This document shows, one piece after another, positions 44,450-45,750 of a stretch of DNA of 64,000 nucleotides (position 1 is its first letter; each line of letters opens with the position of its first letter). A model generated the notes under the pieces. The model was given only the letters and a program-made list of their open reading frames with translations, ran no database searches and was not told where the DNA came from. The position numbers and the translations under genes are program-made. Origin of the DNA: an uncultured Acidobacteriota bacterium (GTDB lineage Bacteria; Acidobacteriota; Thermoanaerobaculia; UBA5066; Gp7-AA6); NCBI GenBank assembly GCA_963847075.1, contig CAWJYL010000002.1, positions 20,668 through 84,667 of the forward strand, read 5' to 3'.

Positions 44450-44478
44450 TTGTAACTAAAAACATTTGTTCGTATAAT
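44450..44478 (+). promoter_or_regulatory. sigma-A promoter with LexA/SOS-box-like site in the spacer
   Basis: TTGTAA-17-TATAAT; AAAACATTTGTTCG at 44459-44472 vs consensus CGAACRNRYGTTCG. Confidence 0.65.
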
Positions 44479-44511
44479 AGAAATAAGACAATTGTGTTAG
44501 GAGGGGAGAGA

Positions 44512-45678
44512 ATGGCTAGAAATCCAGGTATGACCGATGAAGTAATTATTCAAATGTATAAAAGTGGCATGACTTTTAATAAAATGGCTCCCATCATTGG
44601 AATTTCTGATCGAGCTATAAGGAACGTTATGTACAAACATGGAATTCAGATGAATAGGGAGCGATATTCAGGACAACCTCGAAAAAATAAGGTGAATGAG
44701 GACTATTTTAAAACTTGGTCACATGAAATGGCTTGGATATTGGGCTTATTTGTAACAGATGGCCATGTGAATAAGAAAATTCAAAGCATCTATTTTTCGC
44801 AAAAAGATGAACGTATTCTTCGATTAATTGCAAATTACATGGAAGCAGACTATGTTTTGGCTGCTACTGGACCGACTAAAAAGACACCGACTCTAATTAT
44901 TAATTCGAAAATTATTAAGGAAGATCTTGCAGCTTTAGGAATTGTTGCTAATAAATCTTTATCTGTACCTTTTCCGAACGTTCCTGAAGAATTTATATCG
45001 TCATTTGTTAGGGGAGTTATTGATGGAGATGGATGGGTAGGAAGAGAAGGTTATGAAATGCATGTAACATCTGCGAGCTTGTATTTTGCAGAGGACCTTC
45101 TATCCATATTACTTTCATGGGGATTAAGCGCAAAAATCACCTCCTTTAAAAGTAAAAATGGTACTTCCATATATCGGGTATGGGTAAGTGGGAAATCTGA
45201 TCTTCCCAAACTGGCTAAGATAATATATGCAAATGCAAACTCTAATGATTTTCATATATATAAAAGGGTGTATATGACGCAACATTCAAGGAATCCTTAT
45301 TATATTGAAGATGATAGTGAATTACCAATGTGGAAGTTTGAAAATGGCAAGTTAATTCACAGTACAACTAGTTTAAGAAAATCATTTAGAACAAATATCA
45401 GTAAGTCACTATTAGAATCTTTAAGGGTAATTGCCAACGAAAAGAATACGCATATCAATTATTTACTCGAAAGTGGAATGAAAAGAGTTTTGAAACAAGA
45501 AATTATCTCATTCAATAAATTCAAAAGACCTAAGGATCGGATTCAATATAAATCAACTTATGATGATATATTGTTAGAGGAAGTAAAGTTGTTTGCCAAG
45601 AAAAATAAGCTATACATCAATGATGTGATTGAGTATAGCGCGCAGTTTATAGACATCGGAGAAATGAATGACGATTAG
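44512..45678 (+). CDS. free-standing LAGLIDADG endonuclease-like protein with N-terminal HTH and C-terminal tandem ribbon-helix-helix-like region
   Basis: [10 protein letters not shown] and [10 protein letters not shown] motifs; HTH at N-terminus; [10 protein letters not shown]... and [10 protein letters not shown]... repeats. Confidence 0.85.
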
Positions 45679-45714
45679 AAGGGACCTATAACAATGAGTC
45701 CCTTTTCTATTTTT
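45678..45714 (+). terminator. intrinsic terminator
   Basis: aagggac/gtccctt stem plus T-rich tail. Confidence 0.65.
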
Positions 45715-45722
45715 CATTTTTA

Positions 45723-45750
45723 AGTTGACATAATATATATTATCGGTAGC
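45723..45750 (-). other. dif: dif site (Xer chromosome dimer resolution)
   Basis: GCTACCGATAA-TATATA-TTATGTCAACT vs B. subtilis ACTTCCTAGAA-TATATA-TTATGTAAACT; gene strand bias flips here. Confidence 0.88.

Follow-up and report, generated by a model that had tools for sequence, protein, structure and literature searches.

A LexA-box-bearing LAGLIDADG cassette beside dif in Bacillaceae and Planococcaceae: a candidate homing-type element at the Xer site

The window described here, a stretch of 64,000 nucleotides (nt), holds an open reading frame (ORF; P0001) predicted to encode a protein of 388 amino acids (aa) in three modules: an N-terminal helix-turn-helix (HTH) domain, a LAGLIDADG endonuclease core, and a tail of tandem ribbon-helix-helix (RHH) units. 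The gene, which together with its promoter we call the cassette, reads directly towards dif, and its stop codon lies 44 nt from that site. A sequence-only reading of the window had proposed an intact gene of this kind, in its own transcription unit with terminators on both sides, with no intron or intein host and no transposase, ending about 45 bp from dif. These points were borne out. The ORF is free of stops, the flanking hairpins (z -7.7 and z -2.3) lead into a T run upstream and a T-rich run downstream, and the cassette is free-standing between a DUF1540 gene and a GNAT gene, with no intein, intron or transposase context seen at the locus. A strict terminator scan returned no sites and listed neither flanking hairpin because their loops exceed its limit; the hairpins were scored by folding. 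An Rfam scan of positions 44000-46000 gave only chance-level rows, all far under gathering scores. Coordinates are collected in Table 1.

Table 1. Features of the cassette and its immediate surroundings, in window coordinates.
Feature	Position	Strand	Basis
DUF1540 gene, upstream neighbour	44212-44367	+	Pfam, E 4.9e-16
Hairpin and T run ending the DUF1540 gene; left limit of the cassette's transcription unit	44383-44445	+	Fold of 44383-44437: -30.6 kcal/mol, z -7.7
Sigma-A-type promoter: TTGTAA, 17-nt spacer, TATAAT	44450-44478 (-35, 44450-44455; -10, 44473-44478)	+	10 of 12 positions match
Putative LexA (Cheo-type) box AAAACATTTGTTCG, AAAC left-half variant, in the spacer and abutting the -10	44459-44472		Motif match
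HTH-LAGLIDADG-tandem-RHH ORF (P0001)	44512-45678	+	388 aa, stop codon included, no internal stops
N-terminal three-helix HTH (residues 9-42), then disordered linker (49-57)	44536-44637	+	AlphaFold2 model; PHROG HTH-type matches, residues 9-57
Double-motif LAGLIDADG core (residues ~65-256)	44704-45279	+	Pfam PF14528, AlphaFold2, Foldseek
Catalytic Asp codons	D83, 44758-44760; D173, 45028-45030	+	D83 and D173 invariant
Tail (residues 271-381): beta hairpin and two strand-helix-helix units	45322-45654	+	Models; begins at retained Met
Hairpin and T-rich run, stop codon to dif	45677-45722	+	Fold of 45677-45706: -11.9 kcal/mol, z -2.3
dif, 28 bp, type A junction	45723-45750		XerD-type arm AGTTGACATAA 45723-45733; TATATA 45734-45739; XerC-type arm TTATCGGTAGC 45740-45750
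Nested palindrome GTATCA ... AAGTATACT ... TGAGAT beyond the XerC arm	45754-45787		Native dif neighbour

The core of the protein is recognisable at the levels of sequence and predicted fold. Pfam LAGLIDADG_3 (PF14528) matches in two stretches (E 1.3e-18; 67.4 bits against a cut-off of 22.5), and the PHROG 4645 family, annotated as endonuclease, matches residues 9-243 (E 1.2e-38). An AlphaFold2 model built from 28 homologues (predicted local distance difference test score, pLDDT, 85.3) shows the HTH, the linker, the core and a small hairpin, followed by strand-helix-helix units at residues 289-328 and 343-379. In Foldseek the best matches of the modelled core were intein and intron LAGLIDADG enzymes, namely 7qsu (the TliVMA intein, E 7.6e-11), PI-SceI, I-Tsp061I and I-DmoI; probability 1.00 to these and to I-SceI indicates the alpha-beta-beta-alpha-beta-beta-alpha saddle of the family. 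The best sequence match among solved structures was again 7qsu (E 7.2e-13). The last acidic residues of the two motifs, LGLFVTDG (D83) and RGVIDGDG (D173), are invariant in all 28 aligned homologues, and two helices that each end in an acidic residue would make this a monomeric, double-motif LAGLIDADG homing endonuclease. Structure prediction, which the sequence-only reading had proposed for the three modules, thus recovered each of them: the N-terminal HTH, the two LAGLIDADG helices with their acidic residues, and the tail of about 110 aa with its two strand-helix-helix repeats. The first of these repeats also carries a weak match to an Arc-like repressor (phrog_3180, E 4.4e-4, residues 289-330).

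The tail proved to be more than the end of a single protein. At locus L002 it forms a second ORF with a separate ribosome-binding site, at L005 it is the first ORF, and in the window and many other loci it is fused to the nuclease, the window retaining the tail's Met at residue 271. Public proteins fall into two size classes, fused proteins of about 360-410 aa and nuclease-only proteins of about 255-290 aa. When the tail was modelled alone (pLDDT 85.4), its best structural match by VIA-align was chain 9f0x_E of the F relaxosome (113 residues; Z 9.5, root-mean-square deviation 3.2, 99 residues aligned, about 8% identity), followed by DndE (Z 7.0), single-chain Arc 1u9p (Z 6.9), AvtR (Z 6.2) and then many single RHH domains (Z 3-4). 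The model has the two strand-helix-helix units, arranged as a pseudo-dimer, of a single-chain tandem RHH protein. A sequence-profile search of the tail against the PDB gave one chance-level row, and Foldseek returned nothing for it at E <= 0.001. The size and fold of chain 9f0x_E suggest that it is TraY, which, in the portion of PMC12117103 available to us, is described as an RHH dimer fold within one polypeptide that binds beside the relaxase site of action. These matches of the stand-alone model would make the tail a DNA-binding accessory akin to TraY, whose place of action adjoins that of a site-specific nuclease. The comparison has its bounds, as the identity is low, the cassette lacks a relaxase, oriT and conjugation genes, and the partner here is a LAGLIDADG enzyme. 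The tandem strand-helix-helix tail of the sequence-only reading therefore stands, with the correction that it is a separable TraY-like gene.

Before the relatives are considered, the source of the window has to be established. The assembly that holds it (G000) has a GC content of 67%, and only contig C2 from position 1 to about 93.5 kb, a block that includes the whole window (C2:20668-84667, at the contig end), has 36-40% GC; near C2:93.5 kb the GC content rises from about 40% to 68% within about 1 kb. Because of this abrupt change, and because only this block is low in GC, we regard the window as a fragment of a Firmicute attached to an unrelated genome, and the block of about 93 kb is most likely a chimeric join or a contaminant. 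Relatives chosen by the taxonomy of the assembly are another organism and are therefore uninformative about the cassette. The absence of matches in the assembly's own family, genus and order (0/104, 0/43 and 0/174) was accordingly rejected as a sign of sporadic distribution, and a site at C1:81677 was rejected as a second native dif, since both concern the 67%-GC host. That site (C1:81,677-81,698, ACATAATATATGTTATCGGACA) is the dif of the high-GC host genome, has a near-identical single copy in each of 43/43 genomes of that genus, and is unrelated to the cassette. Protein similarity led instead to the loci of the fragment's actual kin. Genome handles (G...) stand for one genome per species, and the counts that follow, made over non-independent kin, are descriptive. 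The closest genome, G525, shares 78% protein identity and 79% nucleotide identity over window positions 42966-45998, cassette included; in a quick tree the window protein groups with a Sporosarcina protein.

The 28-bp site after the gene has the properties expected of dif. It agrees at 22-25 of 28 positions with the sites of L002, L004 and L005 and matches the consensus type of the single sites in 38 of the 44 genomes of one Bacillaceae family, that of G177; its arms we take to be of XerD and XerC type, following the layout of dif in B. subtilis and E. coli. It also lies at a GC-skew switch, the position of a terminus (+0.089 at 42-46 kb, -0.043 at 44-48 kb, -0.137 at 46-50 kb), where the cumulative skew peaks. 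The organism of the window is represented by some 93 kb, and uniqueness was judged in relatives, in which whole-genome pattern searches found a dif-type site to be essentially single per genome. A xerD gene was present in 5/5 genomes checked.

Proximity to this site is a property of the family. A linked cassette reads towards the one dif of its genome and stops 20-100 nt short of the XerD arm. Among species-representative genomes, 4/4 loci from four taxa have a dif-like site after the gene, equally oriented and with its XerD-type arm nearest, 42-62 nt past the end of the match. Such a site also lies downstream at 13/13 metagenome loci of at least 46% identity with enough sequence, seven more ending too early. 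The cassette was dif-linked in 18 of the 19 genomes with a match in the Bacillaceae family of G177 and, in a sample of 401 genomes spread evenly over the class, in 18 of the 21 with a match. A more distant subfamily (35-37% identity), in which a C-terminal HTH replaces the RHH tail, is still dif-linked, with a gap of 310-376 nt in four genomes and 2.3 kb in a fifth. Metagenome relatives at 36-42% identity (L023-L033) had dif nearby in 0/9 loci. Homologues are thus not placed at random with respect to dif, which was the first comparison that the sequence-only reading had proposed.

Of the four exceptions, three have DNA inserted between the gene and dif. Downstream of the G184 cassette comes a hybrid site, in which the native XerD arm and centre are joined to a foreign arm. 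An island of 44.6 kb and 25-32% GC (C11:101,777-146,281; L129, L179-L182) is integrated there in dif, between direct repeats of some 21 nt that comprise the XerD arm and the centre; the hybrid site adjoins the cassette, and at the island's other end lie the true dif and two tyrosine recombinase-like genes. In G446 and G476 dif lies 8.3 kb and 2.3 kb downstream of the cassette, in the same orientation, and another element has probably integrated between the cassette and dif of G446. At that locus (L187; G446:C1, just after 1,706,350) a nuclease gene without a tail stands before a fragment resembling the 3' end of a tRNA, with foreign genes beyond. The relative in G313 (42% identity) adjoins a phage terminase gene, and the dif of G313 is on another contig.

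Control by LexA is suggested by the promoter. The sequence-only reading described a TTGTAA-17-TATAAT promoter with a LexA-box-like 14-mer in its spacer, and this is what the window contains: the box reads AAAAC-ATTT-GTTCG, its left half one base off GAAC. The Bacillus Cheo-box consensus is CGAAC-N4-GTTCG, and it overlaps the promoter in the LexA regulon of Bacillales. The AAAC variant, found in the window and in its sister G525, may on its sequence be a weaker operator. Conservation of the box in homologues, another comparison proposed beforehand, was clear. A strict GAAC-N4-GTT[CT] box occurs within 300 nt upstream of the nuclease start at 23/35 scored loci, against a background of 0.02 per 300 nt, and a relaxed [GA]AAC box at 29/35, against 0.05, the background being the rest of the same 35 loci. 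Most of the LexA-type boxes in cassette loci adjoin the -10 hexamer. Of the six loci without a relaxed box, five have near-variants or a box further upstream and the sixth is the prophage-borne relative in G313. The box is kept in 5/5 members of the distant dif-linked subfamily, and [CA]GAAC-N4-GTTT[GC], an operator of the same type, is present in the promoter of lexA itself in 5/5 cassette-bearing genomes. Among sequencing runs, no RNA run containing the stretch was listed and none of any kind had more than 0.16 of its words, an outcome that bears neither way on induction.

The junction between cassette and dif exists in two forms. Cassette-less genomes have at this place a T-rich run, TTTTCT, AGTTTACATAA, N6 and TTAT[AC]GGAAGT, with a nested palindrome some 20 nt beyond. 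Type A cassettes, that of the window among them, keep the native TTTTCT-AGTTTACATAA junction. In type B cassettes TTTTCT and the outer six bases of the XerD arm are replaced by ACGC-CCC[CG]NN, the inner arm being the same as in type A; the type B tail has a conserved YK[HN]R[VLI]E-like end, and most type B cassettes have the two-gene form. The sister genomes G197 (type A) and G196 (type B) show how the two forms are related. The two become homologous some 10 nt before the -35 box, agree at 90-100% over codons 1-180 and at 45-77% between about residue 180 and the XerD arm, and are 97-100% identical once dif is reached. When the second LAGLIDADG subdomain and the tail are used for a tree, 12 type A and 17 type B loci fall into separate groups without exception, and a tree of the N-terminal half mixes them; the 5' module follows host lineage. 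Because of this mosaic and of the disagreement between the two trees, we interpret the 3' module (second LAGLIDADG subdomain, tail and junction DNA) as two old, non-recombining alleles exchanged between lineages, the anchors of exchange being the conserved second LAGLIDADG motif and dif. The clean split may reflect co-adaptation of the DNA-reading parts with the junction, or only absent homology inside the block. At position 5 of the XerD arm in type A, counts hint at an immunity polymorphism and are confounded by phylogeny.

Several sequence features around the junction were considered apart from this. An 8-bp repeat (TAAGTTGA, at 44373 and 45720) was rejected as a target-site duplication: its first copy lies upstream of the DUF1540 terminator, and the repeat is probably due to chance. 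The palindrome beyond dif was rejected as part of the cassette, since it is present in the form GTCTCA-N5-AAGTATACTT-N7-TGAGAC, 3-25 nt past the XerC arm, in 19/20 cassette-less Bacillaceae genomes (L155-L174), as well as in most cassette-bearing genomes. It folds weakly, lacks a T run and is not terminator-shaped, and it looks like a candidate protein-binding site. In G516 an extra type B tail gene (L203, C1 ~1,913,000) lies about 30 kb from the main cassette, with an inverted, degenerate copy of the type B junction (GTTCGGGGCG) upstream of it; L192 (G427) was noted together with it. The arrangement in G516 suggests a past rearrangement through dif.

The cassette is patchily distributed and often in decay. 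A match was found in 19/44 genomes of the Bacillaceae family and in about 15-20 of the 401 genomes of the class sample. Roughly 8-12 of the 19 family matches have an intact nuclease, and in six or seven it is broken or missing: the nuclease is full of stops in G177 and G209, and only parts are retained in G201, G206, G212 and G214. Relics were seen at 2/20 of the dif loci scored as empty. At least seven genomes have an intact tail-only gene beside a type B junction (L195, L196, L198, L199, L201, L144 and L145; that of L194 is broken), and L195, L196, L198 and L199, from four related genomes, have no trace of a nuclease and no LexA box. The protein tree, a quick one, broadly follows host families, with a Planococcaceae-type and a Bacillaceae-type clade; only the Sporosarcina koreensis group is discordant with its host. 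Searches of plasmids and phages found no close copy, all matches being below 35% identity, and viral contigs held relatives at no more than 32% identity. The region just left of the cassette is a hot spot for insertions and deletions, and yet in nearly all lineages nothing lies between the cassette and dif. For the comparison of empty and filled alleles, which had also been proposed, four pairs of related genomes were used (G177/G198, G206/G204, G209/G207 and G214/G211). Only the right flank aligned near dif, the left side being the indel hot spot, and no precise junction could be defined.

Some differences between the window and its neighbours stand apart from the cassette itself. The GNAT acetyltransferase gene just past dif (45845-46309, minus strand) is missing in the otherwise syntenic G525 (L183), an indel on the XerC side too. 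Further along, an MFS transporter gene (46356-47620, minus strand) and a gene for a GyrA/ParC C-terminal beta-propeller (47712-48635, minus strand) are each split into several ORFs in different frames. These may be either pseudogenes or frameshift errors in the low-GC block; the cassette ORF is full length.

Among known systems, the nearest relatives outside the group are phage intron-encoded and free-standing endonucleases of the same HTH-LAGLIDADG layout (PHROG 4645; ORF036 of phage 0305phi8-36, a 'mobile intron protein'; endonucleases of Staphylococcus phages), which match over residues of about 9-250 and keep both acids. They differ from the cassette in being only 24-28% identical, in residing in phage genes or introns rather than beside a chromosomal dif, and in having no tandem-RHH tail in the matched stretches. 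The prophage-borne relative in G313 has neither a LexA box nor dif in its locus. The inteins TliVMA (7qsu/7qss) and PI-SceI give the best sequence and fold matches of the core, and the core of PI-SceI is likewise extended by DNA-binding modules, but the cassette has no splicing domain or host protein, its extra modules are an HTH and a tandem RHH, and it has LexA-type control. In the yeast HO endonuclease a LAGLIDADG core with extra DNA-binding modules makes a programmed break under tightly gated expression, and the cassette would resemble it in both its added modules and its gating. WhiA, a bacterial chromosomal protein with LAGLIDADG and HTH domains, was also a fold match (3hyi). It is a domesticated transcription factor that has lost its catalytic acids, has a C-terminal HTH and is a universally conserved housekeeping gene. 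The cassette protein does not belong with it, as it keeps both Asp residues, has its HTH at the N-terminus, scores 21.9 bits against the LAGLIDADG_WhiA cut-off of 23.2, and is patchily distributed.

Two further kinds of element live at dif. CTX-phi, which is under SOS control, is one of the integrative mobile elements exploiting Xer recombination (IMEXs), as is TLC-phi with its factor XafT; the partial accounts available describe TLC-type sites as lacking a good XerD arm, a likeness to type B. IMEXs use two dif-like sites and XerCD, whereas the cassette has one site, a nuclease and no replication or phage functions. In the available part of PMC10132070, the IS1202 family (ISAjo2 group) is described as targeting dif or pdif in fixed orientation, a few bp from one dif arm, by non-Xer means, and on that partial account it may be the nearest analogue for non-Xer targeting of dif. 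It differs in having a transposase and terminal inverted repeats, of which the cassette has neither, and in lying on the XerC side in Acinetobacter; the cassette is on the XerD side and has a LAGLIDADG enzyme.

We consider that the observations describe, with about an even chance of being right, an old, free-standing, LexA-gated cassette of homing-endonuclease type that is specialised on the XerD-arm flank of dif. Cleavage, its target, binding by LexA and any effect on Xer recombination are what we infer from sequence, and the steps would run as follows. LexA would keep the nuclease silent. During the SOS response the HTH, the LAGLIDADG saddle and the RHH tail would together read a long site in the flank of dif on another copy of the chromosome, one without the cassette or with its other type. 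Cutting of that flank would follow, and RecA-dependent repair from the cassette-bearing copy would transfer the 3' module or the whole cassette, with dif and its conserved right flank serving as one homology arm. The type B junction would be a cleavage-immune allele. Spread would occur mostly among close relatives, and this would explain the long-term vertical look of the family, its decay and its loss, following the invasion-decay-loss cycle usual for homing endonucleases. We favour this reading because the kin of the protein are mobile endonucleases, the catalytic centre is kept, the orientation is fixed at a highly conserved sequence, and presence is patchy and subject to decay; the 3' module, in addition, has been swapped between close relatives, and type B has an altered, plausibly uncuttable junction.

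Several observations weigh against it. Among the genomes compared there is no precise filled and empty pair with both flanks alignable. Intact type A cassettes, such as that at L133, stand beside a junction indistinguishable from an empty one, which leaves self-immunity unexplained if the target is there. The broad host congruence of the quick protein tree and the synteny of the window with G525, over 3 kb at 79% nucleotide identity, speak for vertical descent rather than recent transfer, and plasmids and phages offer no close copy. Cassettes displaced from dif by insertions (G184, G446, G476) have not re-homed. A host function would account just as well for a LexA box and a position that are conserved down to 35% identity; the intact tail-only genes show part of the cassette being kept without the nuclease; and the clean split between types A and B can follow from absent homology inside the block, without co-adaptation.

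These same points keep a domesticated role in contention, which we hold to be possible if doubtful. By analogy with HO, LexA would free a site-specific nuclease or nickase aimed at its own dif flank, so that a programmed break, or altered or blocked access of Xer, would come when recombinational repair raises the load of chromosome dimers, and the gene would stay by its site. Beyond the missing junction, the vertical descent and the tail-only genes, such a role would suit the retention of position, orientation and LexA box at 35-37% identity across subfamilies with different C-terminal tails, the invariant catalytic residues, and the unaltered type A junction, which a self-acting enzyme needs. 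It sits poorly with a gene found in only 19/44 family genomes and about 15-20 of 401 in the class, frequently broken or lost, with a 3' module swapped between sister species, with type B altering the very arm that a helper should preserve, and with cassettes that stay intact 2-45 kb away from dif in G184 and G446. The sequence-only reading had framed the matter as either a damage-induced selfish element homing at or near dif or a domesticated factor acting at the terminus. That frame held up, both comparative tests being positive: random placement relative to dif, lack of a conserved SOS box and an intron context, any of which it had named as counting against the idea, were looked for and none was found. 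Between its two halves the data lean towards the selfish element and do not settle the choice. A bolder reading, which we think rather improbable, is that type B cassettes hijack dif instead of simply adjoining it: the outer half of its sole XerD arm would be overwritten by ACGCCCC and read by the TraY-like protein with the YK[HN]R[VL]E end, so that the tail gene would become necessary for resolving chromosome dimers, or for shielding dif from cleavage. Such dependence would explain why tail-only genes outlive the nuclease beside type B sites and why two mutually exclusive 3' modules persist as old alleles, and each nuclease might then cut the other type's junction, or an empty one, during SOS.

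The position of the cassette could also have arisen by other routes. It might move by XerCD at dif, in the manner of an IMEX or dif module, with the XerD arm travelling along and the nuclease as cargo or helper. The point where types A and B cease to differ does lie within the XerD arm, no further on than the central region, and integration at dif occurs in the group, as in the G184 island; the type B site, with its degenerate XerD arm and native centre and XerC arm, resembles the right junction of TLC-type IMEXs in the portions of PMC6744903 and PMC9226527 available. Yet the 1.5 kb ahead of the promoter contained no further dif-like site or half site at any of 23 loci, so that a model with two flanking dif sites was rejected; genomes have essentially one dif; the inner arm is identical in both types, so that a crossover point cannot be placed; and the G184 island has tyrosine recombinase genes of its own. 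We judge this route highly unlikely. Least likely of all, to our minds, is that the nuclease is induced by SOS as a toxin or for defence and is paired with an RHH protein as its antitoxin or immunity factor, a single ancestral insertion having happened to put it at dif. Toxins under LexA control occur in other bacteria, the two-gene layout of nuclease and RHH protein in either order is suggestive, RHH domains resemble the DNA-binding domains of many antitoxins, and the tail-only survivors look like orphan antitoxins. A toxin-antitoxin pair would not tolerate the fusion into one polypeptide seen in many lineages, and a second subfamily with a different tail holds the same position. Mere historical linkage is also argued against by the fact that nothing has been inserted before dif in dozens of lineages, beside a hot spot for indels. 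A homing-type element specialised on the flank of dif remains the reading we prefer.

The sequence-only reading knew of no described system like this one, and a literature search agrees. Full-text searching, in which subscription journals were thinly covered, found no paper linking LAGLIDADG enzymes to dif, XerD or chromosome dimers. By title or the start of the abstract, nothing relevant joined homing endonucleases with dif; nothing tied homing endonucleases to SOS boxes in this sense; and nothing related joined LAGLIDADG with ribbon-helix-helix proteins among the matches listed.

The cassette is widespread in Bacillaceae and Planococcaceae, where it has so far been annotated just as 'LAGLIDADG family homing endonuclease'. 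If the sequence-based reading is right, these proteins may be natural meganucleases of three modules (HTH, LAGLIDADG and tandem RHH) with a target present once per genome, and so candidate tools. The site itself, dif, is among the most conserved non-coding sites in bacteria, and the cassette raises the questions of whether a homing-type nuclease can anchor on the conserved Xer site, whether, in bacteria, a break at the terminus is timed by SOS, and how a genome can live with a dif that, in type B, has a substituted outer XerD arm. Should the hijacking of dif by type B cassettes prove true, the Xer site would underlie an addiction-type or allelic-drive system in which SOS times a programmed break at the replication terminus. 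Known exploiters of dif use XerCD, as IMEXs do, or a transposase, as in the IS1202 family; a LAGLIDADG cassette with LexA-type control would be a third kind of dif-associated element.

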